From Minisyncoccota bacterium (GTDB lineage Bacteria > Patescibacteriota > Minisyncoccia > Phycocordibacterales > UBA9973): a stretch of DNA of 64,000 bases. The notes beneath the pieces were generated by a model. It worked only from the letters and a program-made list of their open reading frames with translations, was not told where the DNA came from and did not search any database. Shown piece by piece: positions 11,810-62,741 of the stretch (positions are counted from its first letter, which is position 1; each line of letters opens with the position of its first letter). A program made the position numbers and the translations under genes. The stretch lies in assembly GCA_041659845.1 (NCBI GenBank), contig JBAZXM010000001.1, forward strand, positions 124-64,123, written 5' to 3'.

Positions 11810-12313
11810 ATGATTATACAAAACACATTAGCATATTATCGAAAACGTAAGGGCTACTTACAAACAGACACAATTAAAGTTTTAGGATTTTGTAGTACAA
11901 ACAGAATTTCTCGCTGGGAGAAAGGTACAGCGGTTCCAAGTATTCATAATTTAGCAAAGCTTTGTGCACTTTATGATGTTTCGCCTAAAACCCTGTATCC
12001 AGTTTTATTCGATGATTCAGAGAAACAAATAAATAAAAAGAAGTCTGATCTAGGGATTGTTTACCCATTCAGACTTTTATTAAAAGTATCAATCGCTGAA
12101 GTGCTTAAAATCAAGGAAGTATATGATCATATTTTTAAATCTCTGACAAATATTAATGAGTTTGCGTGTTTTAAGGAGAGTTATTTTTGGGAGCTATTTA
12201 TGCGACTGATCGATATTTTAATACTGCGACAAGTAGTGGCAATCAACCAAATTTATTCTCTCAGTCAAGCAGTGGAGGAATGGCAGGTAATGTGGCTAAT
12301 TTTAATTGTATAA
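11810..12313 (+). CDS. XRE-family helix-turn-helix transcriptional regulator (HTH confined to first ~65 aa; 3' part of ORF overlaps the next CDS and may not be translated as drawn)
   Basis: LQTDTIKVLGFCSTNRISRWEKGTAVPSIHNLAKLCALYDVSPKTLY = Cro/C1-type HTH. Confidence 0.55.
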   Translation: MIIQNTLAYYRKRKGYLQTDTIKVLGFCSTNRISRWEKGTAVPSIHNLAKLCALYDVSPKTLYPVLFDDSEKQINKKKSDLGIVYPFRLLLKVSIAEVLKIKEVYDHIFKSLTNINEFACFKESYFWELFMRLIDILILRQVVAINQIYSLSQAVEEWQVMWLILIV

Positions 12314-13818
12314 TCGGAAACAATGGAACAGCAAATGCAGGAAGTTTTACAATTAATTATTATGTCTGTAGTTCTTCATCTTTCATAAGTCCAACTTGGA
12401 TTGGCTCAGATTATGTTTCAGGTTTAGTAGTTAGCTCAACATACAGTTCGCAAATAAGTATTGATTTATGTAATGCAGGCTTAGCAAATGGCACATATTA
12501 TCTTGGTTTTTATATTGACTATTCTAACCAAGTCGGTGAAAGTAATGAAAATGATAACAATACTTTTTACAACTCGAATCCCTATTCAATAAATTGTACG
12601 AGTGGAGGAAAGCCAAATTTATATGATATTTCAGGAAGTGCTGGGCTTACTGGTAATGTTGCTCTTTACAGTTATACTATTAGCAATAATGGTACTGGTA
12701 ATGCAGGAGGTTTTTATGTAAATTGTTATGCGTGCACTTCACCCTCTTTTACAAGTCCAATTTTGGTTGGTTCAGATTATGTTTCAGGTTTAGCTGTCGG
12801 CACCTCTTATACTTCGGAAATTAGTGTTGATCTTTGTAATTCTGGGTTGGCAACAGGTTCATATTATCTTGGTTTTTATATTGATTATTCCAACCAAATT
12901 GCTGAGAGTAATGAAAATGATAATAATACTTTTTATAGTTTCAGCGCAACGACAATAAATTGCTCTGGTAGTGGTGGTGGTTGCACTTATTCTATTTCAC
13001 CTCCAACTGGTCATGCTACTTTTCTTTTTGGTGGCGGCTCAGACTGGACTTATGTTACAACTAACAATAGCACATGTGCATGGACAGCTAGTACTCCAAA
13101 TAATTGGATAACTGTTTTAAACATTAGTGGAATTGGGAATAGCTATATTAATTATCAAGTTTCTACAAACACATCTCCTTATCCAAGAACAGGAACTATT
13201 GATGTAATGGGATTGATTTGTACAATATATCAAGATGGTCAAAATTGCCCGGTAACTGTTAATCCAATAACTGATAATATTTCAAACTCAAGTGGTAATT
13301 ATTCTTTTCATATGACTACTGGTCTTGGTTGTGGTCATTCAGTATTAACCAGCGATCCATCTTGGCTTACAATATTAAGCGTAGTTGGAGATACACTCGT
13401 TAGTGATCCCTCATGGCTTACAATAATAAATGTAGTTAGTAATACAGTTGTGAACTATCATGTTAATTCTAACCTTAGTTCACCTCGAATTGGTATAATA
13501 ACTGTTGATACTGTTTTACACTATGTTAATCAAAGCGGTATAACTAGATTAAACGAAATTAGTGCTAGTAAAGAATTTTTTATTTATCCAAACCCAACTG
13601 ATGGGGTTATTAATATTGTTGGTAAGAATTTTAAAAATGATGATTATAAAATAAAAATTGCAAATTTATTAGGAGAAATAATGAATGAAATAGATTTTCA
13701 TGTAAGCAATAATATCATTGTCAAACAAATTGATTTAAAACAACTACCAAGCGGCATTTATTTTCTAAATGTTTTTACGAAGGAAACTATGCAAATATTC
13801 AAAATAAATAAATTATAA
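12187..13818 (+). CDS. Repeat protein: 2x CARDB-like ~110-aa repeats + short SDPSWLT(I/L) duplicated segment + C-terminal T9SS-type (Por_Secre_tail-like) sorting domain; TTG start after AAGGAGAG RBS, no signal peptide
   Basis: Two near-identical repeats ending ...YYLGFYIDYSNQ(V/I)(G/A)ESNENDNNTFY (E.NE.NN CARDB signature); C-terminal FFIYPNPTDGVINIVGKNF...GIYFLNVFTKETMQIFKINKL. Confidence 0.65.
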   Translation: MGAIYATDRYFNTATSSGNQPNLFSQSSSGGMAGNVANFNCIIGNNGTANAGSFTINYYVCSSSSFISPTWIGSDYVSGLVVSSTYSSQISIDLCNAGLANGTYYLGFYIDYSNQVGESNENDNNTFYNSNPYSINCTSGGKPNLYDISGSAGLTGNVALYSYTISNNGTGNAGGFYVNCYACTSPSFTSPILVGSDYVSGLAVGTSYTSEISVDLCNSGLATGSYYLGFYIDYSNQIAESNENDNNTFYSFSATTINCSGSGGGCTYSISPPTGHATFLFGGGSDWTYVTTNNSTCAWTASTPNNWITVLNISGIGNSYINYQVSTNTSPYPRTGTIDVMGLICTIYQDGQNCPVTVNPITDNISNSSGNYSFHMTTGLGCGHSVLTSDPSWLTILSVVGDTLVSDPSWLTIINVVSNTVVNYHVNSNLSSPRIGIITVDTVLHYVNQSGITRLNEISASKEFFIYPNPTDGVINIVGKNFKNDDYKIKIANLLGEIMNEIDFHVSNNIIVKQIDLKQLPSGIYFLNVFTKETMQIFKINKL

Positions 13819-18517: not shown

Positions 18518-21500
18518 ATGTCAACTATTTTTAAACATACCAAACTCTTTTTCAAACGAAACTCCATTCTTATCGTTTCGCTTGCTTCATTTGCGATCTT
18601 CTCCTCAGGATTACAACTCCTAGCATCATTCTCTCCTGGTCAAACACTAGATCCGAACTGTACCCCGGGATCAGTAGACTGCACCGTAGATGTCAGTAAT
18701 ACTCTTTCTAAAGGAACTTCATGGACTTCACGCACCAGCGCAGCGGATAATGATTGGAATGGCGTCGCATATGGCAATGGCCTCTTCGTGGCTGTTGCTA
18801 ATTCCGGTATTGGTAATCGTGTCATGACTTCACCCGATGGCATCAATTGGACAATCCGCACAAGTGCTTCTAACAATGCTTGGCGTGACATTACTTACGG
18901 CAACGGACTATTTGTGGCGGTTTCTCAGGATGGTGTAGGCAACCGCGTCATGACTTCACCTGACGGTATCACATGGACTTCACGTACCAGTGCGGCGGAT
19001 AATCAATGGCTTGGCGTCACTTACGGCAATGGCCTGTTCGTAGCCGTGTCTTTTGATGGCACCGGCAATCGTGTCATGACATCACCTGACGGTATTACAT
19101 GGACATCAAGAACAAGCGCAGCGGATAATAACTGGAGTAATATCACCTACGGCAACGGACTATTTGTGGCGGTAGCGCAAACCGGTACCGGCGACCGCGT
19201 CATGACTTCACCTGACGGTATCACCTGGACATCCCGCACCAGTGCGGCAGATAATGATTGGCTTGGCGTCACCTACGGCAATGGTCTTTTTGTAGCGGTA
19301 GCGCAAACCGGCACCGGCAACCGCGTTATGACCTCTCCAGACGGTATCACATGGACTTCACGCACTAGTGCGGCGGATAATACTTGGCGTTCAGTAGTAT
19401 ATGGAAATGGGCTTTTTGTAGGAGTTAGCTCTACCGGCACCGGCAACCGCGTTATGACCTCGCCAGACGGCATTACGTGGACAATTCGTACTAGCGCCGC
19501 GGATAACGGCTGGGATACAATTACCTATGGCAATGGCATGTTTGTTGCCGTAGGCTTTTCCGGCACCTCCAACCGTGTCATGACCTCCGGTAAAACCGAC
19601 TACATTCCATTTTCTCCGAATAATATTTTCCAAGGGGGAATGAATATTAACGGACTTGTCGGTATTGGAGGATCACCATCAGAAAATCTTACTATTACTA
19701 CATCTGACCTGGCTACAAATTTAACTTTTGGTATCAGAGCATTAACAGCTGGAGGTGCTTCATCAAGATCTATTTTTACTCAAAATGCTACAACAGGAGC
19801 ATTAACTCTTGGTGTGGATGTGGGATTAAATGGAACAGCAAGAGAATTTATTATTAATACCGGTTCGACAGAAAGAATGCGAATTGAATCTACGGGATTT
19901 GTAGGTATTAATGTAAACGCAACGTCACAGCCAGCATATCCTAATGCTAAATATATATTAGATGTTGCCGGCCCGACTATATTGGTTAGAAATTCAGCAG
20001 GAGGTAGATTCCTTGCAGAAGATACTGATGTTGCAGATGCAAGCAGTCCTTTTGCTTATTTTCAAAGTGACGGGGGAGTTATTAAAATAGGGAATGCAAA
20101 TAGAAATGCGGGGACAGGACTAACTACTGGAAGTGTAGATAGAATGACAATATTGGCTAATGGCAACCTCGGCATCGGGACGACTTCCCCCACCCAAAAA
20201 CTAGATGTTACGGGTTCTGGTAGATTCATAGGAACAGGCACTTCTGTTTTGACAGGAAGTATAGATCCAACAGCTTCCACCTCTGTCGTCGGAGTAGGAA
20301 CATTATTTACTACAGAATTAGCTGTGGGGGATAGTATTACTGTTAACGCAGAAACAAGAAGGGTAACAGTTATAACTGACGCTCTTAATCTTACTGTAGA
20401 TACCGCTTTTACTGATACCGCCAACGACACTTCGCCAGATAAACTAGTTCCTGTTTTGGATATTCAAAGCAGTATGGCTCAAATTTCAACAACGTTAAAG
20501 GTTTCAAACACTAGTGCAAGTGGTGGAAACATTTTACAGATGGATAGAGTTAATAATTCAAGAGCAAATGCTATAAATTTCACTACATTAGGAGCTTCAG
20601 ACTGGTATATGGGAGTATTGCGAAACGCAGGCAATCCTACCCAAACATTCGGTTTGAGTTTTGGTGATGCCAATTTGACCACGAATGGTTTTGTGGTGAA
20701 TAGTACTGGTAAATTTGGAATTGGAACGACTACTCCAACTACTCTTCTCTATGTCGGCAATTCATCAGTTTCAGGTATTGTTGCGACTTTTGAAAATTCA
20801 ACAGGAGTTTGCACAATCAATCCGACCACTTCTTCTGTCGGCTGTTCGTCCGACCAAAGTTTGAAACATGATATTACTACGCTCTCAAATTCAATGGATA
20901 AAATCCGCGCTCTTCGTGGAGTTAATTTCAAATGGAACGTTGATCAAGATTCTGACCCAATGCGAATCGGCTTCATCGCTCAAGAAGTGCAGTCTATTGT
21001 GCCAGAGCTCGTTTCCGATATGCCCAATGGAAAACTCGGAGTCAATTATGCAGGATTCACTCCACTCCTCATTGAAGGTATGAAAGATCTTGACCTCCGC
21101 TTGAAATCTCTGGAAACCCTTGATGACGGAACAGGTTCTTCACCTCTGAAGAAACTCATTATGGATTATCTTTTGAATACAGAGGAGAAGATTATGAATG
21201 GCATTGTCCGCGTGCAGGAACTCATCACTAACAAACTCACTGTTGGAAGTTCTTCACAGCCTGCAGGGGTGACATTGTTTGATCAAGTCACATCGAGTCC
21301 ATACTGTATCTCGGTTGCAAATGGAACACTCACGACGCTTTCAGGTGTGTGTGGTACTGCGGCAACACCATCCTCTCCTTCGATAGGCTCAGGATCTCCG
21401 ACAACCCCACCACCGAGCGATCCACTACCATCCGACCCTGATCCGTCGCCAGGAGGCGAGGAAGTACCTCCAACACCTTCTGATGAGAGCGTTACTCCAC

Positions 21501-21538
21501 CGGCTGATATTCCACCATCCGAACCTGTGGTTGAATAA
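18518..21538 (+). CDS. Large surface fibre-like protein: signal/TM anchor, 8x 40-aa BNR(Asp-box)-type repeats, beta-rich central region, C-terminal Peptidase-S74 intramolecular chaperone (auto-proteolytic) domain, Pro/Ser/Thr-rich tail
   Basis: Repeats RVMTSPDGITWTSRTSAADNxWxxVTYGNGLFVAV (S-x-D-G-x-T-W Asp-box); C-terminus SSDQSLKHDITTL...NFKWNVD....IGFIAQEVQSIVPELV...L.V.Y..LIEGMKDL matches endosialidase/tail-spike chaperone domain. Confidence 0.7.
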   Translation: MSTIFKHTKLFFKRNSILIVSLASFAIFSSGLQLLASFSPGQTLDPNCTPGSVDCTVDVSNTLSKGTSWTSRTSAADNDWNGVAYGNGLFVAVANSGIGNRVMTSPDGINWTIRTSASNNAWRDITYGNGLFVAVSQDGVGNRVMTSPDGITWTSRTSAADNQWLGVTYGNGLFVAVSFDGTGNRVMTSPDGITWTSRTSAADNNWSNITYGNGLFVAVAQTGTGDRVMTSPDGITWTSRTSAADNDWLGVTYGNGLFVAVAQTGTGNRVMTSPDGITWTSRTSAADNTWRSVVYGNGLFVGVSSTGTGNRVMTSPDGITWTIRTSAADNGWDTITYGNGMFVAVGFSGTSNRVMTSGKTDYIPFSPNNIFQGGMNINGLVGIGGSPSENLTITTSDLATNLTFGIRALTAGGASSRSIFTQNATTGALTLGVDVGLNGTAREFIINTGSTERMRIESTGFVGINVNATSQPAYPNAKYILDVAGPTILVRNSAGGRFLAEDTDVADASSPFAYFQSDGGVIKIGNANRNAGTGLTTGSVDRMTILANGNLGIGTTSPTQKLDVTGSGRFIGTGTSVLTGSIDPTASTSVVGVGTLFTTELAVGDSITVNAETRRVTVITDALNLTVDTAFTDTANDTSPDKLVPVLDIQSSMAQISTTLKVSNTSASGGNILQMDRVNNSRANAINFTTLGASDWYMGVLRNAGNPTQTFGLSFGDANLTTNGFVVNSTGKFGIGTTTPTTLLYVGNSSVSGIVATFENSTGVCTINPTTSSVGCSSDQSLKHDITTLSNSMDKIRALRGVNFKWNVDQDSDPMRIGFIAQEVQSIVPELVSDMPNGKLGVNYAGFTPLLIEGMKDLDLRLKSLETLDDGTGSSPLKKLIMDYLLNTEEKIMNGIVRVQELITNKLTVGSSSQPAGVTLFDQVTSSPYCISVANGTLTTLSGVCGTAATPSSPSIGSGSPTTPPPSDPLPSDPDPSPGGEEVPPTPSDESVTPPADIPPSEPVVE
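18720..19600 (+). repeat. Coding tandem repeat, 120-bp period x ~8 (near-identical at DNA level)
   Basis: ggtatcacatggacttcacg... blocks recur every 120 nt; explains spurious antisense ORFs 19273..19633. Confidence 0.8.
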
Positions 21539-21556: not shown

Positions 21557-23452
21557 GTGATAGACCATAATGAAAAAATTACATATTTCGCCGAGACTGA
21601 TTTTAGGAATAAACAAGCACGCTTTGGTATAAAGGCAAAAGACCGCACTCGCCACATGTATGTCATCGGTAAGACAGGCATGGGTAAATCAACCATACTT
21701 GAAAATATGGCGATTCAAGATATTCAGAACGGCGAAGGTCTTGCATTCATCGATCCCCACGGCGGAACTGCTGAAAAATTACTTGATTATGTTCCCGAAC
21801 ACCGTATTAAGGATGTCGTCTATTTTGCGCCGTTTGATGCTGAATATCCGATGTCATTCAATGTTCTTGAGGATATCGGCGCAGACAAACGCCACCTGGT
21901 TGTTTCCGGCTTAATGAGTGTCTTTAAGAAAATCTGGCAGGATGCATGGAGCGCTCGCATGGAGTACATTCTAAACAACACATTACTCGCATTACTCGAA
22001 TATCCGGGCTCAACTTTGATGGGAGTGAACAAAATGCTTTCGGATAAAGATTTCCGAAAAAAGATTGTCGATAACGTACAAGACCCGGCAGTGAAATCAT
22101 TCTGGGTTGATGAATATGCAAAGTATACGGAAAAGTTCGCTGCTGAGGCGACGCCGGCTATTCAGAACAAAGTCGGTCAGTACACATTAAACCCACTCAT
22201 TCGAAACATCATCGGTCAGCCGAAATCATCATTTGATATTCGCGAGTTGATGGATACGAAGAAAATTTTCATTATCAATCTCTCTAAGGGTCGTATCGGC
22301 GAGCAGAATATGAATTTGCTCGGCGGCATGTTCGTTACGAAAATCTACCTAGCCGCGATGTCGCGTGCCGACCTTTCCGAAGCGGAAATCGCCAAGCTTC
22401 CACCATTTTATCTTTATGTAGACGAGTTCCAAAATTTCGCCAACGAATCTTTTTCTCAAATTCTTTCCGAAGCTCGAAAGTACAAATTCGCTCTTACAGT
22501 CGCCAACCAATATGTCACTCAAATGGTCGAGGAAGTCCGCGATGCTATTTTCGGCAACGTCGGATCGATAATTTGCTATCGCGTCGGTCCCGCCGATGCT
22601 GACCTTTTTGAAAAAGAATTTGCTCCGCAGTTCACAGCTGAGGATATAGTAAACCTAGGCCAGTTCCAAATGTATTTACGCTTGATGATTGACGGTGTCG
22701 GCTCGAAGCCATTTTCTGCTCGTGGTATGGCGCCTATTCCGCGGCCGGAAATTTTCTATCGAGAGCAAATAATCGAGAGTTCTCGAAAAGTTTTCGCCCA
22801 CACTCGTGCTGAAGTCGAAGAGGGAATAAAAGCCTGGCACGATACAATTTCTCAAAAGCCGGAAAGGCCGAAACGTGAAGAAATGCCTGCTGGCGGAAAT
22901 GAGTACCAGAGGCCTAGAGAATTTTCCGACCGGCAATTCGAAAGGCCGAGGCAGAATTTCCCGCCGAGAAATGATGCTCCGCGCAGGTTTGAAGGCGAAA
23001 ATAACAGGAGAAGTTTTCCACCTACCCCACCTCGCCAGGAAGCGCCAATTCACAAGCCTTTTGTTAAAGTTTTTGAAAAACCTCAAAAATTCGAACAGCC
23101 TCGCGCTTCTTCTCCGAAATTAAAATCACTTTTGAATGAGCTCGAAAAAAGCGAACCTTCTACGAAGTCTACTATGCCCGCATCTATGCCAGTACTTCGT
23201 CCAGAACCTGAGAAAAAAACTCTTTCCCTTCATAATCTAAATAAAGCTTCAACAGGGAAATCACTCAACCTTTCCGGGCTCAAGGATGTACTTGCAAGCG
23301 CATTGAAGGATATGCCGGAAAAGCCACGCCCAGCACCAGCGCCAGCACCTAAAAAAGAAAGCGAGCCGGAGGAAAAAATCACAACAAACGAAACACAAAA
23401 AAAACAAACAAAAGAAGTCCCTGAAGATGTTCTTAGAAAAATTTTGGAATGA
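21557..23452 (+). CDS. TraD/VirD4/TrwB-like type-IV coupling-protein ATPase without N-terminal TM segment, with ~200-aa Arg/Pro/Glu-rich low-complexity C-terminal tail
   Basis: RHMYVIGKTGMGKSTILENM...LAFIDPHGG (H..V.G.TG.GKS / DPkGe pattern), later LYVDEFQNFA and KYKFALTVANQYVTQM (QS..QL-like) ; tail ERPKREEMPAGGNEYQRPREFSDRQFERPRQNFPPRNDAPRRFE... Confidence 0.6.
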   Translation: MIDHNEKITYFAETDFRNKQARFGIKAKDRTRHMYVIGKTGMGKSTILENMAIQDIQNGEGLAFIDPHGGTAEKLLDYVPEHRIKDVVYFAPFDAEYPMSFNVLEDIGADKRHLVVSGLMSVFKKIWQDAWSARMEYILNNTLLALLEYPGSTLMGVNKMLSDKDFRKKIVDNVQDPAVKSFWVDEYAKYTEKFAAEATPAIQNKVGQYTLNPLIRNIIGQPKSSFDIRELMDTKKIFIINLSKGRIGEQNMNLLGGMFVTKIYLAAMSRADLSEAEIAKLPPFYLYVDEFQNFANESFSQILSEARKYKFALTVANQYVTQMVEEVRDAIFGNVGSIICYRVGPADADLFEKEFAPQFTAEDIVNLGQFQMYLRLMIDGVGSKPFSARGMAPIPRPEIFYREQIIESSRKVFAHTRAEVEEGIKAWHDTISQKPERPKREEMPAGGNEYQRPREFSDRQFERPRQNFPPRNDAPRRFEGENNRRSFPPTPPRQEAPIHKPFVKVFEKPQKFEQPRASSPKLKSLLNELEKSEPSTKSTMPASMPVLRPEPEKKTLSLHNLNKASTGKSLNLSGLKDVLASALKDMPEKPRPAPAPAPKKESEPEEKITTNETQKKQTKEVPEDVLRKILE

Positions 23453-23504
23453 TTAACAATTTATTTTTAAGATATTAGTGCCCAGCATAATTTTGCTAAA
23501 CCAT

Positions 23505-24971
23505 ATGAAAAAATATTTTCTGTTTGCTGTGATTCTGTTCTCTTGTTCCGCTTTTCAAGTACATGCGCAATTTGTATTTACTGAAATAATGTACGATTTG
23601 CCCGGGACTGACACTGACCATGAATGGGTTGAAATACAGAATACAGGAGCCACTGATGCGGATGTAACTGATTGGAAATTTAATGATGGCTCTAATCATA
23701 ATTTAAATACTCCGCCGACAAACGGGTCTCAAGGTTCTTTTACAATTCCTGTCGGTGAGTATGCTATTTTAACTGCTGACGCGGTGAAATTTTTGTCTGA
23801 TTATTCCGGCTACGCTGGTACTGTTATCGATACAGTAATGAGTTTGAACAATACAACAGATACTCTTAAATTGATTGATAAAAACGGGATAGAAATCGAT
23901 TCCGTAACATACGATTCATCAATCGGTGCATCGGGTGATGGAAATACGATTCAAAAATCCAGCTCTTCTTGGATAGCGAGCTCTCCTACTGTGGGAATTT
24001 CTTATTCGGTATCTTCGCAAGGCGGAGGAACTGGCACTCAAGGGGTGACTAGCGGAACCACATCTGTAACTTCCCCCTCTATCCCAATGACCGCGAAAGA
24101 CGACGGCACTCCTAAAATAACTGCGGATATTATTTTGAAAAACACTCCGATTACGGGAGTAGATGCTATTTTTGATGCGGCTGTGATCGGCTACAGTAAA
24201 GAAAAGATTACTCGCGGGAAGTTCGTTTGGAATTTTGGCGACGGAGTGACGGAAGAAACTTCCGAAATAAAAAAGATGGAGCATATTTACGATTATCCGG
24301 GAGATTATGTCGTGATGCTTGAATATTACCCCAATTCTTATAGCACTGATCCTGATGCCACAGACCGACTTGTTATAAGTGTGCTTAAACAACAAGTTAT
24401 TATTTCATCTATAGGTTTCGATGCAAATCCGTATGTTGAAATTTCAAATACCGGAACTCACGAAATTGATCTCTCAAGATTCATTTTACGAGCATCTTCG
24501 GGTGCACAATTTGTGTTTCCCAAAAATACTATTGTACTAGGAAATAAAAAAATAATCCTTTCTCCCAAGATGACACATTTCACCGCAGATGATGTGAAAA
24601 CTGCAACACTTTTATATCCGAGCGGGGAAGTCGCATTTGCATATGAGTCTGCTTTAGAGAAAATAGAAAAGCAGCCAAGAGAACAAGTACAAGATGAGAA
24701 AATCATTCAGGTGGAAGATGCAACGAAATCAATTATCGCAACTAATAATGAGGAAGTTAAAAGTTCGTCTATCTTAAATTCAAGTATTTCTCCAGAAAAT
24801 CTTCAAGCGAATGCATTTAACGCACTACCCGAATCAACTTCAAGTTCTTTTGGATTGTGGGCTTTCGGACTTATCGTTTTGATGGCACTTGCCGGGGGAG
24901 CTGTTGTATTTTTGAGATTTAATTACAGTAAAGTCCAGTCAAAGGCAGATGATTTCGAAATTCTTGAATAA
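23505..24971 (+). CDS. Extracellular membrane-anchored protein: signal peptide, Lamin-tail domain (LTD), PKD-like domain, second LTD, C-terminal TM anchor (ORF-track start 23478; ATG at 23505 precedes signal peptide)
   Basis: FVFTEIMYDLPGTDTDHEWVEIQNTGATDADVTDWKF (LTD), GKFVWNFGDGVTEETSE...YPGDYVVML (PKD), NPYVEISNTGTHEIDLSRFIL (LTD), LWAFGLIVLMALAGGAVVFL anchor. Confidence 0.65.
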   Translation: MKKYFLFAVILFSCSAFQVHAQFVFTEIMYDLPGTDTDHEWVEIQNTGATDADVTDWKFNDGSNHNLNTPPTNGSQGSFTIPVGEYAILTADAVKFLSDYSGYAGTVIDTVMSLNNTTDTLKLIDKNGIEIDSVTYDSSIGASGDGNTIQKSSSSWIASSPTVGISYSVSSQGGGTGTQGVTSGTTSVTSPSIPMTAKDDGTPKITADIILKNTPITGVDAIFDAAVIGYSKEKITRGKFVWNFGDGVTEETSEIKKMEHIYDYPGDYVVMLEYYPNSYSTDPDATDRLVISVLKQQVIISSIGFDANPYVEISNTGTHEIDLSRFILRASSGAQFVFPKNTIVLGNKKIILSPKMTHFTADDVKTATLLYPSGEVAFAYESALEKIEKQPREQVQDEKIIQVEDATKSIIATNNEEVKSSSILNSSISPENLQANAFNALPESTSSSFGLWAFGLIVLMALAGGAVVFLRFNYSKVQSKADDFEILE

Positions 24972-26907: not shown

Positions 26908-27129
26908 ATGGAACATTATGTATGTACTGGAGGTTGTGGGGGAGTAAGTAATGAGGCGGGTGTATGCCAGACGGAAGGCTGTGTTCGTTTTGGTCAACCG
27001 CTTCATGAGTGTGGATGTGAGGATAATATGCACGAAGGTTTAACTAATGCCTGCAAAGATTGCGGAGAACTCTGCAAACAAAAAGGCGGATGCCAAGTAG
27101 AAGAATTTAAAACGGAAATTGAAGCGTAA
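26908..27129 (+). CDS. Small cysteine-rich protein (12 Cys in 73 aa), putative metal-binding
   Basis: MEHYVCTGGCGGVSNEAGVCQTEGCVRFGQPLHECGCEDNMHEGLTNACKDCGELCKQKGGCQ. Confidence 0.45.
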   Translation: MEHYVCTGGCGGVSNEAGVCQTEGCVRFGQPLHECGCEDNMHEGLTNACKDCGELCKQKGGCQVEEFKTEIEA

Positions 27130-32251: not shown

Positions 32252-35200
32252 ATGAAGCAATACGATCACCTAAAAATCGAAAAGAAATGGCAGAAGGAAT
32301 GGGAGGCGAAGAAGGTTTACAAGACTGCTAATCCCGGCAAAATGAAAAAGCATTATGTGCTTGATATGTTTCCATACCCGTCCGGTGCGGGCCTTCATGT
32401 CGGCCATCCACGCGGATATATTGCAAGTGATGTATATGCGCGCATGAAGCGCATGCAAGGCTTCAATGTTCTTCACCCTATGGGCTTTGACTCATTCGGA
32501 TTGCCGGCAGAGCAATATGCAATACAAACAAAGAAGCACCCAGGGCCTTTCACTGAAAAGCTTGTGGAGCTCTACAAGAAGCAGCTTGAGATTATAGGCT
32601 TCTCATATGATTGGAGCAGGGAAGTCGCGACGCACAGGCCTGAATATTACAAATGGACGCAGTGGATATTTTTAAAACTCTATGATGCCTGGTATGACCA
32701 AACAAAAGATAAAGCGCGCGATATCAGTGAGCTGGTAAAAATTTTTAATAAAAATGGCAATGAAAATGTGAATGCTGTGTGTGATCAAAACACACCAACT
32801 TTTTCCGCGAAAGAATGGAAGCAGATGAGCGAGATGGAAAAGCAGAATATGCTCATGAAATATCGCTTGGCATACGAAGGCTATAGCGAAGTGAATTGGT
32901 GCTCGAAGTTAGGAACGGTGCTTGCGAATGATGAAATTGTAGATGGGCCTGACGGCAAGCCAGTCTCCGAGCGCGGCGGATTCGGAGTAGAAAAGAAATC
33001 CATGCGACAGTGGTTTATGAGAATAACTGCATATGCAGATAGATTACTTTCAGGCCTCGAAGGTCTTGATTGGTCATCACATATAAAAGAAATACAGAAG
33101 AATTGGATAGGGAAGAGTGAGGGGTCGGAGATCAGTTTTAAAATTGTTTCTGGAGATAAAAAAGATCTAGATAATCCCTTAGGTAGGAGAACCGACCTAG
33201 GATCTATTACAGTTTTCACTACAAGGGCTGATACGCTTTTCGGCGTCACCTATGTTGTTCTTGCGCCGGGGCATTTATTTCTTGAAAATATTAAAACTAG
33301 AATTTCAAATTGGAAAGAAGTTGAAAAATATCTTGATGTAATAAAAAACAAATCTGAAGAAGACAGAATAAAGGAAGGTGAAAAAACAGGTATTGAATTA
33401 AAGGGTATCATGGCAATCAATCCTGCAAATGGAGAAGTGGTACCTGTCTGGATAGCTGATTATGTCTTGGCAAATTACGGTACTGGTGCAGTAATGGCTG
33501 TGCCTGCACACGATGAGCGTGATTTCGAATTTGCGAAGAAATATAAATTACCGATTCGTGATGTTGTAGCAAAAATGATTGGCGAACATCATCATGAAAA
33601 TAATATTCGTGACGTTGCAGAGGGTGTCATTATTAAAGACGACCAGGTTCTTGTAATGGAATATAAAAATCAATATGGTTTGCCGGGTGGAGGAATTGAA
33701 GAAGGTGAAACTCCTGAGCAAGCATTATTAAGAGAAATCAGAGAAGAAATCGGGTATACAGATGTTGAAATTGTCGAATATCTAGGACAAGCAAATCGTT
33801 ATTATTTCTCGGATCGAGATCAAAAGAAAAAAGTAAGACATGCATATGGATATGTAGTAAAAATACTAAGTAACAAAAAAAACCCTACTGCTCCTCATGA
33901 AATTGATAAGCCTGTATGGCTCCCTATATCGGAAGCAATTCAAAAAGTTCAACAGAGTCCAATCTATTACCAAAGTAATTTTATTGACCGGGCGTTTAGT
34001 GGTATGGGGCAATGTTTTGTTGATAATGGCGTTTTGATTCAATCAGGGCAATTTGACAGCTTAACTTCTGAAGAAGCTCGTAAGAAAATTACCGAATTTG
34101 TCGGAGGTAAATTGATCACTAAATACAAAATGCGCGACGCGATTTTTGCTCGGCAGAGATATTGGGGCGAGCCGATTCCGCTTTCGACTGACAAGGATGG
34201 GATTATTCATGAAGTCAAAAAACTTCCACTTAAACTCCCAAATGTGAAATCATACGAGCCGGCAGGCACGGGTGAGAGTCCGCTTGCGGGAGTGAAGGAT
34301 TGGGTCAAGCATGGCTACGAGACAAATACCATGCCTGGTTGGGCGGGAAGCTCATGGTATTTCTTGCGTTACATGGACCCAAAAAATAAAAGTGCAATAG
34401 CAAGCAAACAAGCGATCAAATACTGGAAAGATGTGGACATGTATGTCGGCGGTGCAGAGCACGCAACAGGGCACTTGTTGTACTCGCGTTTCTGGCACAA
34501 ATTCTTGAAAGATATCGGCATTGCACAGACAGAAGAACCATTTAAAGCGCTTCGCAACCAAGGCTTGATAGGCGGTGCTGATGGGCGCAAGATGAGTAAG
34601 CGCTGGGGGAATGTCATAAACCCTGATGAGATTGTAAAAACTTATGGCGCTGATACACTCCGTGTCTACGAAGCATTCATGGGACCTTTTGATCAATCAC
34701 TTCCGTGGTCCACAGAGAGCATTATCGGCTCACGCAGATTTATTGAAAAAGTTTGGAGGATGGGGGAGAAAACAATTCTCGCTTCGCATAATTCTTTTCA
34801 AAAAGGTCCTCGGGTCGCCCGTGCAGGTTTATCAGGGAAGAGCGGGCTCGACCAGACCGTTTTTGAAAAGAACTCTGCTGCGCTTAAGAAAGTGCTTCAC
34901 AAAACTATTAAAAAAGTTACGGAAGACATTGCGAATTTTAATTTCAATACCGCAGTCTCAGCGATGATGATTTGCGCGAATGAAATGGAAAAAGCTGAAT
35001 ATGTTTCCGTGGAAGATTTCAAAAAATTCTTACAAATTTTAGCACCATTTGCCCCACATGCGTCTGAAGATCTTTGGCGTGAGCTCGGTGAGAAAAAATC
35101 AATCCATCTTTCAGAATGGCCTCTGTATGATAAGAAAAAGATTATTGATGACACTATCACTATTGCCATTCAGGTTAATAGCAAAGTCCGCGCAGAAATT

Positions 35201-35341
35201 TCTATTCCTATTGATATGAGCGAAAATGATCTAAAAAAACTTGTTTTGGAAAATCCTGCGACCAAGCAATGGACAGAAGGCAAGGAAATAAAGCGAATTA
35301 TCCATGTCAAAGGCAAGCTCGTCAATATAGTTATTGCTTGA
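32252..35341 (+). CDS. leuS: Leucyl-tRNA synthetase carrying an in-frame ~140-aa Nudix-hydrolase domain insertion (nt ~33565..34015) between the editing domain and the leucyl-specific/KMSKS region
   Basis: HVGHPRGY (HIGH), KMSKRWGN (KMSKS), GTGAVMAVPAHDERDFEFA editing-domain end; insertion contains perfect Nudix box GGGIEEGETPEQALLREIREEIGY. Confidence 0.9.
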   Translation: MKQYDHLKIEKKWQKEWEAKKVYKTANPGKMKKHYVLDMFPYPSGAGLHVGHPRGYIASDVYARMKRMQGFNVLHPMGFDSFGLPAEQYAIQTKKHPGPFTEKLVELYKKQLEIIGFSYDWSREVATHRPEYYKWTQWIFLKLYDAWYDQTKDKARDISELVKIFNKNGNENVNAVCDQNTPTFSAKEWKQMSEMEKQNMLMKYRLAYEGYSEVNWCSKLGTVLANDEIVDGPDGKPVSERGGFGVEKKSMRQWFMRITAYADRLLSGLEGLDWSSHIKEIQKNWIGKSEGSEISFKIVSGDKKDLDNPLGRRTDLGSITVFTTRADTLFGVTYVVLAPGHLFLENIKTRISNWKEVEKYLDVIKNKSEEDRIKEGEKTGIELKGIMAINPANGEVVPVWIADYVLANYGTGAVMAVPAHDERDFEFAKKYKLPIRDVVAKMIGEHHHENNIRDVAEGVIIKDDQVLVMEYKNQYGLPGGGIEEGETPEQALLREIREEIGYTDVEIVEYLGQANRYYFSDRDQKKKVRHAYGYVVKILSNKKNPTAPHEIDKPVWLPISEAIQKVQQSPIYYQSNFIDRAFSGMGQCFVDNGVLIQSGQFDSLTSEEARKKITEFVGGKLITKYKMRDAIFARQRYWGEPIPLSTDKDGIIHEVKKLPLKLPNVKSYEPAGTGESPLAGVKDWVKHGYETNTMPGWAGSSWYFLRYMDPKNKSAIASKQAIKYWKDVDMYVGGAEHATGHLLYSRFWHKFLKDIGIAQTEEPFKALRNQGLIGGADGRKMSKRWGNVINPDEIVKTYGADTLRVYEAFMGPFDQSLPWSTESIIGSRRFIEKVWRMGEKTILASHNSFQKGPRVARAGLSGKSGLDQTVFEKNSAALKKVLHKTIKKVTEDIANFNFNTAVSAMMICANEMEKAEYVSVEDFKKFLQILAPFAPHASEDLWRELGEKKSIHLSEWPLYDKKKIIDDTITIAIQVNSKVRAEISIPIDMSENDLKKLVLENPATKQWTEGKEIKRIIHVKGKLVNIVIA

Positions 35342-56752: not shown

Positions 56753-57919
56753 CTATTTCTTGCCACGGCGTAAAAATGCCGGGACCGCGCTCCAATCTTC
56801 CATTTCTTCATCGTCGATAATTATTTCTTCAACTTGTTTCTTCTCAGTTTTTTGCACAGGAATTTCAGATTGAATAGGTAGAGAATTGTTAATTTCTCTC
56901 CTCTCTTCTTTTTCAGTCTTTTGTGATGATACGAATGGAGAGAACAAAGTCTTTCTTGGAGCATCAGTAGGAAAACCAGTTGCAATTACTGTGACTCTTA
57001 TTTCACCCTTCTTTAAGCGTTCGTCTTTGATTGTGCCGAATATCACTTTAGCTTCCTTATCAATTGATTCAGTGATAACCTTCGCTGCTTCTTGGATTTC
57101 GAGGATCCCAAGATCATCTCCGCCTGAAATAGCGAATAGCACACCCTTTGCACCATTAATTGATACATCAAGAAGAGGTGAATTAATAGCATCTGTAGCG
57201 GCCTTTGTAGCTCTGCCTTCACCTGAAGCGGAGCCGATGCCCATGAGTGCTGTACCGGCATCGGACATGATCGCTTTAATATCGGCAAAGTCGACATTAA
57301 TGATACCAGGAGTAGTGATGAGGTCGGAAATGCCTTCTACGGCTTGGCGAAGGATTTCATCACACATTGCGAATGCTTGTTTGAATCCAGTATCCTTGCC
57401 AGCGATTGAAAGGAGGCGATCATTCGGGATTATTAGAATCGCATCGACTTCTTTTTCAAGTTCTTCGAGTCCGCGATCGGCAAGCTTGCCGCGCTGATTG
57501 CCTTCAAATGAAAAAGGTTTCGTAACGACAGCGACAGTAAGTATACCTTGCTCTTTTGCTGCCTGTGCAACTATAGGCGCGGCTCCCGTGCCTGTACCGC
57601 CTCCCATTCCAGATGCGATGAAAATCATATCTGCGCCCTTGATGACATCTTGGATTTCCGCCTTGGTTTCTTCCGCTGCACGCTTGCCGATTTCCGGGTT
57701 CATGCCGGCGCCTAAGCCTTTGGTTAGATTTTTACCCAAGTGGATTTTTCTGTCTGCAAGAGAATTATGCAGATCTTGAGTATCGGTATTCATAACGATG
57801 AATTCAACACCGCGGACTTTTGAACTGATCATGTGGTTGAGAGCGTTCTTCCCGGAGCCACCGACACCGATAACTTTAATTCGAGCAAATGTTTCTATTT
57901 CAGGATTGATTTTTGGCAT
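56753..57919 (-). CDS. ftsZ: Cell division GTPase FtsZ
   Basis: IKVIGVGGSGKNALNHM, GGGTGTGAAP tubulin signature. Confidence 0.93.
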   Translation of the reverse strand: MPKINPEIETFARIKVIGVGGSGKNALNHMISSKVRGVEFIVMNTDTQDLHNSLADRKIHLGKNLTKGLGAGMNPEIGKRAAEETKAEIQDVIKGADMIFIASGMGGGTGTGAAPIVAQAAKEQGILTVAVVTKPFSFEGNQRGKLADRGLEELEKEVDAILIIPNDRLLSIAGKDTGFKQAFAMCDEILRQAVEGISDLITTPGIINVDFADIKAIMSDAGTALMGIGSASGEGRATKAATDAINSPLLDVSINGAKGVLFAISGGDDLGILEIQEAAKVITESIDKEAKVIFGTIKDERLKKGEIRVTVIATGFPTDAPRKTLFSPFVSSQKTEKEERREINNSLPIQSEIPVQKTEKKQVEEIIIDDEEMEDWSAVPAFLRRGKK

Positions 57920-60785: not shown

Positions 60786-62741
60786 CTAAAACAAATTCTC
60801 CGGGTTTACTTCGATTTGAAACGATGGAGGGAGGGAAGTGAGAAGGTCGGAAAGAGTGGTATCGAATGTGCCTGTACCTGCGAGGATAGGCTTTTGCCAT
60901 GTTTCAGGCTTGATTTTGAGAATCATGAGTGTGGTGTCGAAACCTTTTATTTTTGGAATGCCAGCGGGGATGATGTCAGGTGCGTAATTGGCAAAAATCT
61001 TTGCAAGGTTATCCTTCACCGCAATTGTGTCGAATGGTTTTGTCTTTACTGTAACTTTTATAAGTGTCGAGAATGGCGGATAGTTGAGCATTTTGCGATC
61101 GTGTAGTTCTCCACGATAAAAATCAGTGAGATTACCGGAATGCAGATATCCAAGAATTTGCTCTTCAGGGTTTTTCGTCTGGATTAGGAGCGGCATATCT
61201 GAGAGCGCCTGTAAGATGGCGACCAGCTGGACTATTTTTTCTCCTATGCGGAATGACGGCAAGGAAAAGAGCGAGTCAAAAGAAATAATCGCAACAGCCC
61301 CAACCTTCTCATTAAGGTGCGAGAGCGCAAGCTCTGTGCCGACTAATATTGCGCCTTTGGTTTTGTAAAATTGCTCGGCAATTTTTTTGCCTTGGGCCCT
61401 CGTCTTTACCTTTTCCGCATCGATGATAAAGATTGAAATATCTGGGAAAAGCTTTTTCACCGCTTCCGCTGTATTTTCGGTACCGATGCCGAGTGTGGTC
61501 AAGTTCCAGCTTCCGCAGTTTTTACAGCGAGTTTTCGGATTATATATTTTTTTGCACATCGGACATCTATAAGTAGATCCATTATCTTTTTTAAAAAGTA
61601 TAAGTGGTGCTGTGCAAGTATCACAAAGGACAGTAGTTGAACAGTCATTACAAACAGTTGAAGGCGCGAGACCTTTGCGAAGTGTGAAGAGAAAAATATT
61701 TTGTCCATTTTTTACAACGTCTTCAACTAATCTTTTCGATTCGTCGCTTATTATTCTGAATTCTTTTTTCTCGCCGTCTGTTTTAATATTTGTAGGTACT
61801 ATTATCGGTCTCGCACCATGCAGGCGGAATGATGGCAACGCAAGCTCGGAGAGTTCATGTTCATTGTAGCGTTCGATAGTCTCAGCTCTGACGAGCGTGT
61901 CAGCGAGAATAAGCCGACTTTCGATTTCACTCGCGAAAAGTTCGGCAAATAAACGGAGATCTATGAATGGCCGAGAGATTGTCTTATAAGAGCTTGAGCT
62001 CTCACGTTCTACAATGATGGTGCCCAGGTCTCCACGCGGTATTGAAAGAAAGGGCGCGGTCCCGACGATAATGACAGGATGCAGATTTTTCATGATTGCT
62101 TCATATGATTCAAGTAATTTCTTTTTTGAAAATTCACCGTGGACCAAATATGCATTATCTTCGACCCCTTTCTTTAGGATTTCATGGAAGCGCGTCGCTT
62201 CATGGATGGTCGGCAGGACGAAGAAAATAGATTTCTTACGGGCGAATGATTGGCGTATTTCCATTCGATATGATTCCAATCGCTCTTCATATGCCGCTTG
62301 AAAGATGAGCTTTTCTTTTGAAATGTTTTTCTTCTCATTTTCAAGAAGCATAGATGCGGATAATTTTTCACATGCTTCAAGAAAGATTGTCGGGATTAAT
62401 GCGGTTAAAGCAGATGAAAGAGATGCAGCGTGGATCTTTGCGATACTTTTCACTGCGCAGATAAATGTGGGGGAGAATGGCGGATGTTCGAGTATTTTCT
62501 CTATTTTCTTTAAATGGAATGCGGATGATTTTATTCGTGATTTAGCATCAGCAAGTGGCTCGGAACCTGTGGAAAGGCCTATGATTTTTTTTGTGCGGAC
62601 GCTTGTTATCACAAGCCTGCCAGGCTCTATAGGCTCTGACGAAAAATAAGTAAGCTCTTCTTTAAAGATACCTCGTGCTATCGGGATGATGGTTACTATA
62701 TGCATTACATAAAGGGTAGCATATCGACACTTTGTGTTCAC
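60786..62741 (-). CDS. priA: PriA-like primosomal protein N' with intact Cys4-Cys4 zinc-binding region but no Walker A (GxGKT) and DExH replaced by ERES: predicted ATPase-dead
   Basis: [13 protein letters not shown]...[21 protein letters not shown] zinc-binding motif diagnostic of PriA; segments aligning to helicase motifs Ia-III present ([46 protein letters not shown]) but no GKT/GKS anywhere in 651 aa. Confidence 0.65.
   Translation of the reverse strand: [651 protein letters not shown]

Follow-up and report, generated by a model that had tools for sequence, protein, structure and literature searches.

How would a type IV coupling protein (T4CP) ATPase operate with neither a membrane anchor of its own nor type IV secretion system (T4SS) genes beside it? 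The question is raised by the gene at positions 21557-23452 of a 64-kb stretch of the Minisyncoccota contig JBAZXM010000001.1 (hereafter the window), where it lies between a fibre-like gene and a gene for an extracellular lamin tail domain (LTD) protein. We show here that the gene encodes a T4CP-family ATPase that lacks a transmembrane domain (TMD) and carries a long disordered tail closed by a conserved 12-residue peptide. With somewhat better than even confidence, we take these features to mean that a TrwB-like hexameric motor is brought to envelope partners by peptide docking; the LTD protein would, with less confidence, be the local partner.

A coupling-protein ATPase without a membrane anchor

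An earlier, sequence-only reading of the window had called the protein VirD4/TraD-like, and profile and fold comparisons bear this out. Three Pfam T4CP models pass their cut-offs, namely PF02534 T4SS-DNA_transf (28.5 bits against 20.1), PF10412 TrwB_AAD_bind (26.2 against 20.5, covering residues 25-325) and PF12696 TraG-D_C, the 'TraM recognition site' (24.6 against 22). DUF87 also exceeds its gathering score (27 bits), only over the common P-loop core; all these matches are weak, at 25-29 bits, and NCBIfam T4CP equivalogs score far under their cut-offs. At the level of the family, TrwB_AAD_bind and TraG-D_C match 55 of 55 ATPase domains and T4SS-DNA_transf 48, and none of the 55 reaches E 1e-3 with the FtsK or VirB4 Pfam models. 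A search of the PDB with the family profile returned TrwB as best match (E 3.7e-6), followed by DotL (5e-4), and Foldseek likewise gave TrwB as the closest global structural match (TM-score 0.60-0.65, root-mean-square deviation about 5 Å, about 415 columns), with DotL at 0.55 and Cag-beta at about 0.52. Placement in the T4CP clade rests on these family-level Pfam scans, the profile search and the fold comparison, taken together as a proxy for phylogeny.

In an AlphaFold2 model built on 111 homologues, residues 1-432 fold confidently (predicted local distance difference test, pLDDT, above 90) and residues 433-631 form a disordered tail (about 45-55 at residues 440-620). The folded part follows the plan of TrwB (R388), VirD4, TraD, DotL and Cag-beta: a P-loop nucleotide-binding domain with RH..V.G.TG.GKS and DPxG motifs, a Walker B DE pair and an all-alpha insertion. 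The region spanning Walker A and IDPHG aligns to TrwB 'RHLLVNGATGTGKS...VDPNGD'; D29, R30 and H33 in the lead-in to the P-loop, as well as D289, E290, R307, Y309 and Q318 further along, are invariant in 111 sequences. The eight-helix insertion sits between strands 87-90 and 237-241 of the model and by its predicted fold is equivalent to the T4CP all-alpha domain. On the strength of the Pfam models, the PDB profile, Foldseek, this insertion and the invariant Walker A and B motifs, R307 and Q318, we assign the protein to the T4CP-family ATPases, in which it forms a branch both deep and distinctive, 14-16% identical to the solved TrwB/VirD4-type members.

The 631-aa open reading frame (ORF) begins with GTG, separated by 18 nt from an in-frame TAA (21536-21538) that doubles as the stop of the fibre-like gene; an N-terminal extension or hidden transmembrane (TM) segment is therefore impossible, and an alternative upstream start is ruled out. 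The next in-frame ATG, M34, stands immediately ahead of Walker A, and the N-terminus read from the GTG, MIDHNEKITYFAETDFRNK..., aligns with those of the 120 closest homologues, in which Walker A begins at residue 35-58 (median 37). The N-terminal TM domain of T4CPs is absent from the window protein and from all 120 homologues, the 19-residue Kyte-Doolittle hydropathy reaching at most 0.93 over the whole protein and 1.52 among the homologues. At NCBI, a protein with 100% identity from a Paceibacterota metagenome-assembled genome is annotated as 'type IV secretory system conjugative DNA transfer family protein'. The sequence-only reading was thus right that the protein starts directly with its nucleotide-binding domain; its surprise at a soluble T4CP was justified as to solubility but not as to rarity, as T4CPs without a TMD had been recognised as a class of their own (TraJ/TraI of pIP501; class iii of Llosa & Alkorta, as cited in PMC7431656) and earlier work has both annotated the ATPase family and counted it in Patescibacteria (PMC12102498).

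The protein is not a canonical T4CP, however. Unlike the TrwB/VirD4-type proteins, it is the product of a chromosomal core gene with housekeeping-level conservation, has different tail motifs and is unlinked to VirB4 or a relaxase. It is the single ATPase of T4CP-like family in the window, among whose annotated genes there is no VirB4, relaxase or mating-pair formation gene; neither VirB4 nor a relaxase appears in the called-gene tables within ±7 kb of about 90 homologous loci, and neighbour-family clustering at positions -3 to +3 revealed no recurrent second ATPase or relaxase family in 82 non-redundant loci (the window, 80 species-representative genomes and earlier look-ups; the loci sample hereafter). 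The window is ordinary chromosome, with a flat GC profile, seven scattered tRNAs and genes for MreB/MreC, Tgt, UvrABC, Ddl, LeuRS, a second class-I aminoacyl-tRNA synthetase (aaRS), MurJ, LepA, TsaD, TruB, FtsZ, FtsA, YchF and UDG. These features speak against a prophage or mobile-element origin of the locus, a candidate that was rejected also on the grounds that phage homologues are only distant long forms.

Comparison with three syntenic genomes gives the ATPase domain 71-78% identity, above YchF (63%), UDG (62-64%) and Pyr_redox_2 (46-56%), with the LTD protein at 32-38% and the ATPase tail at 31-40%. The ATPase domain is thus under strong purifying selection of housekeeping grade, unlike plasmid T4CPs. 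This conservation bears on a role in anti-phage defence as a mad8/HerA-like ATPase, to which the PADLOC scan would point: mad8 scores 57 bits (E 4e-16), above every Pfam T4CP score, weak HerA and DndH matches accompany it, and DndH-C and defence HerA structures are among the Foldseek matches. Such a role is nonetheless highly improbable, as the two genes flanking the ATPase have no PADLOC match, its neighbourhood is of housekeeping rather than defence type, its place on the chromosome, amid housekeeping genes, is kept from lineage to lineage, and near-universal presence in the phylum with strong conservation is the opposite of defence-island behaviour. Membership of MADS or another defence system was rejected, the mad8 match standing without system context.

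The same conservation would also suit a cytoplasmic DNA translocase or housekeeping motor with no part in secretion, which might handle the chromosome in the manner of FtsK or HerA, or take up scavenged DNA; as in FtsZ, a C-terminal peptide would bring it to the divisome or membrane. HerA is a strong Foldseek match by E-value, and DUF87 matches 49 of 55 family members. We hold this explanation to be improbable. By TM-score HerA reaches only 0.48, well below TrwB, and in the PDB profile search only E 0.09; the HerA HAS-barrel is missing, since only 37 residues precede Walker A, and the annotated genes of the window include no NurA-like neighbour. The FtsK/SpoIIIE model PF01580 scores 12.4 bits against a cut-off of 24.

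Three architectures and a tail with a conserved end

The family is large, with at least 8000 matches in a word-indexed homologue search and, when 50%-identity representatives were searched exhaustively, 21,631 clusters up to E 1e-3 and 5,850 up to E 1e-30. It occurs in fused, split and anchor-less architectures, with conservation of the gene pairs. Relatives at about 45-53% identity begin with a TM helix, followed by a conserved ~380-aa domain (the N-domain) without a Pfam match and then by the same ATPase. In 32 of the 82 loci, all from the candidate phyla radiation (CPR), the N-domain is instead a separate membrane-protein gene directly upstream of a soluble ATPase, the split falling exactly at the domain boundary between '...KKGxPPxNLP' and '(L)TxFAETNFR', directly after which the lead-in follows in long and split forms alike. 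In the window, tblastn with five N-domains and a hidden Markov model (HMM) search over six frames found no N-domain gene, and a split partner within the 64 kb was rejected. The split pairs are directly analogous to TraJ/TraI of pIP501, in which a coupling ATPase without its own TMD is presumed to be recruited by another membrane protein (PMC7431656). TraJ/TraI, however, sit in a plasmid T4SS operon, whereas the window ATPase has no such operon nearby and its candidate partner is, unlike theirs, a large LTD protein that lies outside the cell and is anchored by one helix.

The N-domain points to the origin of the family. Its HMM matches the long-form homologue of a B. subtilis plasmid (E 1.5e-27), a 'DUF87' protein whose gene is followed by a relaxase-family gene, a 'conjugal transfer protein', TcpE and a VirB4-like ATPase, and it matches SPO1 gp27.4 (E 5e-20). 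The fused form is therefore common to genuine monoderm conjugation operons, which fits the reported derivation of the Patescibacteria T4SS from MPF_FATA (PMC12102498), and an ancestral N-domain in common with a plasmid conjugation protein tells further against the DNA translocase. These long forms (the plasmid protein, SPO1 gp27.4, phage G gp156 and phrog_5156) contain the same ATPase module as the window protein (E 3e-57 and 9e-31 for long-form homologues against the family ATPase HMM) and the same N-domain as the CPR long and split forms. They are fusions of TM, N-domain and ATPase encoded by mobile elements and share 22-29% identity with the window protein, which, unlike them, lacks the N-domain and has a terminal peptide of class A (see below). 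PHROG 5156 matches the family at E 5e-54. Relatives outside the CPR (22-38% identity) lie on 333 plasmids, 268 of them predicted non-mobilizable and 8 conjugative, and in 31 phage records, including those of SPO1 gp27.4 and phage G gp156. In the lytic Bacillus phages SPO1 (gp27.4, L091 3747-6467) and G (gp156), the N-domain-plus-ATPase members measure about 900 aa and occur without a T4SS.

The main rival explanation takes the window protein for the ordinary coupling protein of a chromosomal Patescibacteria T4SS encoded at a distance, docking on VirB4/VirB6-type components and recruiting secretion substrates, with the LTD gene adjacent by mere synteny. The T4CP family and fold, the long-form homologue inside a conjugation operon and the frequent separation of T4CP genes from virB4 (only 148 Patescibacteria T4CP homologues lie near it; PMC12102498) all accord with it, and Wang et al. 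2023 report an essential CPR T4SS cluster without recognisable coupling and relaxase proteins, which an orphan coupling protein could therefore serve. We nevertheless find it fairly unlikely. In Quinonero-Coronel et al. 2025 (PMC12102498), 5,713 VirD4-type homologues, almost certainly the same gene family as the window ATPase, are counted in 2,918 of 3,035 Patescibacteria genomes and VirB4 in 2,417, that is, in 96% against 80% of genomes, so that many genomes carry the ATPase without a T4SS. Relaxases are reported there to be almost absent, and the S. epibionticum T4CP homologue to be non-essential where the T4SS is essential, with the remark that exaptation 'cannot be ruled out'; the claim of non-essentiality rests on that paper, the main text of Wang et al. 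2023 containing no statement on the T4CP homologue. Homologues in lytic phages and on mostly non-mobilizable plasmids, both without a T4SS, likewise sit ill with a dedicated secretion component.

The tail had been described by the sequence-only reading as low-complexity, Arg/Pro-rich and basic, and as a possible binder of nucleic acid. Disorder and net positive charge hold up: residues 421-631 comprise 14% Pro, 13% Glu, 12% Lys and 8% Arg with a net charge of +9, and among 120 close homologues, whose tails measure 121-333 aa, the median charge is +7 and exceeds zero in 119. Arg/Pro/aromatic enrichment does not extend throughout and is limited to the proximal tail (about residues 436-516), a zone that may bind nucleic acid. 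In place of a simply basic tail, we find a variable linker that contains a conserved Leu-rich island (residues 555-585) and ends in a conserved 12-residue peptide. Of 120 homologues, 107 carry the terminal motif, [KRN]-E-[VI]-P-E-[DE]-V-L-[RK]-K-[IL]-L, at a distance of 1-6 residues from the C-terminus; in the model the peptide reaches pLDDT values of up to 76-78, with a helix at residues 623-630. As the sequence is otherwise poorly conserved and yet its 12-residue end and Leu-rich island are strongly so, the tail is read as a flexible linker with docking motifs.

The class of terminal peptide tracks the architecture. Other branches of the family end in '(L/I)KPG(E/Q)x(I/V)xF' or 'FEEPII'; about 40 proteins of class A (EVPEDVLRKILE) include none with an upstream N-domain gene, and all 32 split forms have a class B or other terminus (Fisher 2.6e-14, uncorrected for phylogeny), the KEVPEDVLRKILE-type peptide never occurring in relatives with an N-domain partner. 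A C-terminal extension is shared with F TraD, the extreme C-terminus of which binds TraM.

In architecture alone, the combination of a conserved globular NTPase, a variable disordered linker and a short conserved C-terminal peptide resembles FtsZ, in which the terminal peptide serves membrane-anchor docking. This resemblance would favour the DNA translocase considered above, as would the conserved basic tail, the zinc ribbon found in the tail of one sub-lineage and a loose likeness of KEVPEDVLRK to SAVPAFLRR in the genome's own FtsZ. The folds are unrelated, however, and the peptide similarity is weak: FtsZ of this genome ends in ...SAVPAFLRRGKK, which matches KEVPEDVLRK only with a one-residue indel that alters the hydrophobic spacing, and mimicry of the FtsZ tail was retained only as a low-probability rival. 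Written out, FtsZ (56753-57919, minus strand) ends in ...WSAVPAFLRRGKK and the ATPase (23411-23449) in ...KEVPEDVLRKILE, and the common pattern V-P..(phi)-L-R-(R/K) needs the same indel.

In the sub-lineage with the zinc ribbon (L092 2158-4458, L093 2353-4497 and L094 1617-4469), the tail starts with a CxxC...CxxC motif, C.NCGK..VPFEPKEGRPIYCKDC (Pfam zf_Tbcl_2), and can exceed 500 aa. The L094 tail contains a long Glu/Lys/Arg coiled-coil-like stretch. The KE(V/I)PED(V/L)L..(V/I)LE end is kept in L092 and L094 and degraded in L093 (VVPEEEFNKIFE), and in L092 and L094 a CxxC-rich protein of about 560 aa is encoded upstream of the ATPase.

The downstream LTD protein as candidate partner

The sequence-only reading had placed the gene between a fibre and an extracellular LTD protein; both flanks are as described, and of the two only the LTD gene is a conserved neighbour, the fibre-like gene not lying upstream of the ATPase in any other locus examined. 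Independent neighbour clustering finds the LTD gene at ATPase +1 in 20 of the 82 loci. An HMM built from five LTD partner proteins recovers 21 ORFs in the loci, all directly downstream of the ATPase on the same strand, and no match elsewhere within ±7 kb; reciprocally, the ATPase is directly upstream of the gene in four of four LTD homologues chosen solely by the length of their contigs. The two kinds of neighbour tend to exclude each other, 19 loci having the LTD gene only, 30 the N-domain only, 25 neither and one both (Fisher p 1.1e-4, uncorrected for phylogeny). In the window, the soluble ATPase is thus paired with an adjacent LTD membrane protein rather than with the N-domain partner of the split loci. 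No intergenic terminator separates the fibre, ATPase and LTD genes; the predicted sites are intragenic and their number is near shuffled expectation, and the fibre-like gene is probably co-transcribed with the ATPase here.

The LTD protein consists, in order, of a signal peptide, an LTD, a PKD domain, a second LTD, a Ser-rich stalk, a C-terminal TM helix and a short cytoplasmic tail. The helix is kept in 111 of 120 homologues of the partner, about 70% of which end in the pattern [DE][DE]-phi-x-phi-phi-[DE] (DDFEILE, NDFEILDE, DGYEIIE, EWDIVEE). Among the C-terminally anchored ORFs of the loci, this acidic-hydrophobic motif occurs in 8 of 16 LTD family members as compared to 3 spurious cases in 120, so that it is essentially restricted to the family. 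That an otherwise extracellular protein has a cytoplasmic motif, and that its gene adjoins that of an anchor-less cytoplasmic ATPase, suggests recruitment; the motif is also what mere synteny, under the remote-T4SS alternative, would leave unexplained.

We propose the following sequence of events for the favoured model of peptide-mediated recruitment. The gene product would be a TrwB/VirD4-type hexameric NTPase acting as substrate receptor or translocation motor; its ancestor would be a coupling protein that served monoderm (MPF_FATA-type) conjugation and whose gene then joined the chromosomal core of Patescibacteria. That ancestor would have comprised a TM helix, the ~380-aa cytoplasmic N-domain, the ATPase and the tail; the N-domain would have split off as a separate upstream gene in many CPR lineages, and its local absence in the window lineage would leave the ATPase a free cytoplasmic protein. 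The 200-aa tail would then serve as a flexible, mildly basic tether, of which the terminal amphipathic peptide KEVPEDVLRKILE and the Leu-rich island may dock the motor onto membrane partner proteins. The likeliest local partner would be the co-transcribed downstream LTD-PKD-LTD surface protein with DDFEILE at its cytoplasmic end, and through the pair a motor inside the cell may be linked to a binding module outside it. Hexamer formation, ATP-driven translocation, the assignment of motifs to partners and the substrate, whether DNA or protein, are what we infer from these likenesses, and specific docking of the ATPase on the LTD protein is put forward tentatively, as a possible but doubtful step.

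Several observations weigh against this model. The LTD partner is present in only about a quarter of the sampled loci, and 25 of the 82 have neither partner nearby; in many, the downstream position is taken by glycosyltransferase, Wzy_C/TPR or PGK genes. Kaiserbacteria-like LTD partners end in a basic stub without the acidic tail and their ATPases retain a class-A-like terminus, so that the terminal peptide cannot depend on the LTD tail alone. The statistics of LTD/N-domain mutual exclusion are confounded by phylogeny. As only 64 kb are visible, the rest of the genome could hold genes for an N-domain protein or a T4SS. The non-essentiality reported for S. epibionticum fits poorly with the very strong conservation seen here, and the role of bacterial LTDs is itself unresolved in the literature: they recur in secreted or membrane-associated nucleases, with a DNA-binding role proposed and unproven. 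A literature search joining the lamin tail domain with Patescibacteria found no papers.

The TMD-less T4CP class and the occurrence of the ATPase family in Patescibacteria are established knowledge; what appears new is the combination of housekeeping-grade conservation with an anchor-less motor, a tether, a terminal docking peptide and an LTD partner that has a cytoplasmic motif of its own. The examined parts of PMC12102498 and Wang et al. 2023 contain no description of the tail motifs, the LTD pairing or the three architectures. Patescibacteria account for much of bacterial diversity, and most of their conserved genes have yet to be given a role; that of the coupling-protein homologues is named as an explicitly open question (PMC12102498), and the architectures, C-terminal peptides and LTD pairing replace the loose label 'orphan T4CP' by hypotheses that can be tested. 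Should the motor prove independent of a T4SS, it would be a clear case of conjugation machinery exapted into core cell biology. A broader proposal, which we regard as unlikely, is a phylum-wide T4SS-independent envelope module, in which a coupling-protein-derived hexameric motor would have exchanged its own membrane domain for docking through its C-terminal helix and the DDFEILE-type end of the LTD protein, thereby linking an extracellular, possibly DNA-binding, protein to an ATP-driven translocase. Were it true, such a module might serve, for example, nucleic-acid scavenging or import in organisms unable to make nucleotides.

Feature coordinates and neighbouring genes

Table 1. Positions of the ATPase gene, its parts and its flanking genes in the 64-kb window.
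Feature	Position	Strand	Basis
Whole gene: TMD-less T4CP-family ATPase with disordered C-terminal tail	21557..23452	+	ORF list, in-frame upstream stop
N-terminal lead-in ITYFAETDFRNKQARFGIK...DRTRH, beta-hairpin ahead of P-loop	21578..21655	+	Conserved in 120/120 homologues; strands E8-16, E19-26 in model
Walker A GKTGMGKS	21668..21691	+	G38, G41, G43, K44 invariant
IDPHG after Walker A	21749-21763	+	D66, G69 invariant
All-alpha insertion, ~residues 105-235, eight helices	21869..22261	+	AlphaFold2 model, pLDDT >90
Walker B (FYLYVDEFQ), SEARKYK (candidate arginine finger R307), ANQY (Q318)	22406..22513	+	Aligns to TrwB 'WLFIDEL...GRKAGL...GLQS'
Disordered linker, residues 433-618	22853..23410	+	pLDDT 44-60; helices 521-529, 573-583
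Proximal Arg/Pro/aromatic-rich zone of linker	22862-23104	+	Composition
Short linker helix KLKSLLNELEK	23117-23149	+	AlphaFold2 model
Conserved Leu-rich island …SLNLSGLKDVLASALKD, then Lys/Glu/Pro spacer	23219-23311	+	Conservation profile of 120 tails
C-terminal peptide KEVPEDVLRKILE, predicted amphipathic helix, probable docking motif	23411..23449	+	Motif conservation, AlphaFold2 model
Upstream fibre-like gene, 1006 aa	18518..21538	+	Peptidase_S74 and tail-fibre PHROG matches
LTD partner gene	23478..24971	+	Pfam LTD 5e-25, PKD; probable ATG start 23505
LTD partner C-terminal TM helix	24849-24914	+	
LTD partner cytoplasmic tail RFNYSKVQSKADDFEILE	24915-24968	+	

Across other genomes, the surroundings of the ATPase gene form a recurrent cell-envelope and glycan neighbourhood. 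A Wzy_C (O-antigen-ligase-like) membrane protein with C-terminal TPR repeats takes the place of the LTD gene at ATPase +1 in L006 (9790-11961), L012 and L014; in many other genomes, a GT4 glycosyltransferase cluster follows the ATPase, and DUF4015 is often found upstream.

The fibre-like protein of the window has an N-terminal hydrophobic segment, a Pro-rich C-terminus and a Peptidase_S74 intramolecular-chaperone domain, and contains about nine tandem repeats of ~42 aa (NRVMTSPDGITWTSRTSAADNxW..VTYGNGLFVAV), whose period of 126 nt is also seen as evenly spaced promoter-like matches at 18722-19381. No further phage genes lie near this phage-fibre-like surface protein, which is encoded on a CPR chromosome. 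Upstream of it, the gene at 12187-13818 (+) encodes a CARDB and BACON protein with a terminal Por_Secre_tail, the C-terminal sorting domain of type IX secretion (E 2e-12), which is odd in a monoderm Patescibacterium expected to lack a type IX system; a similar weak match occurs in L001 (2400-3926).

Elsewhere in the window, LeuRS (32252-35341, +; 1029 aa) has a NUDIX hydrolase domain (Pfam E 1e-19, residues 456-564) right behind its editing domain, an unusual aaRS fusion. The largest unannotated gene, a 651-aa ORF at 60786-62741 (-), has no Pfam family at E 1e-3 or better. Finally, a Cys-rich ORF of 73 aa with about 14 Cys residues (CTGGCGG...CQTEGC...CGCED...CKDCGELCKQKGGC) is found at 26908-27129 (+), and ORFs of 74-75 aa occur at the same syntenic position after UDG in L007 (15084-15308) and L008 (13975-14202), being matched to it by size and position alone; the window ORF may encode a metal-binding peptide.

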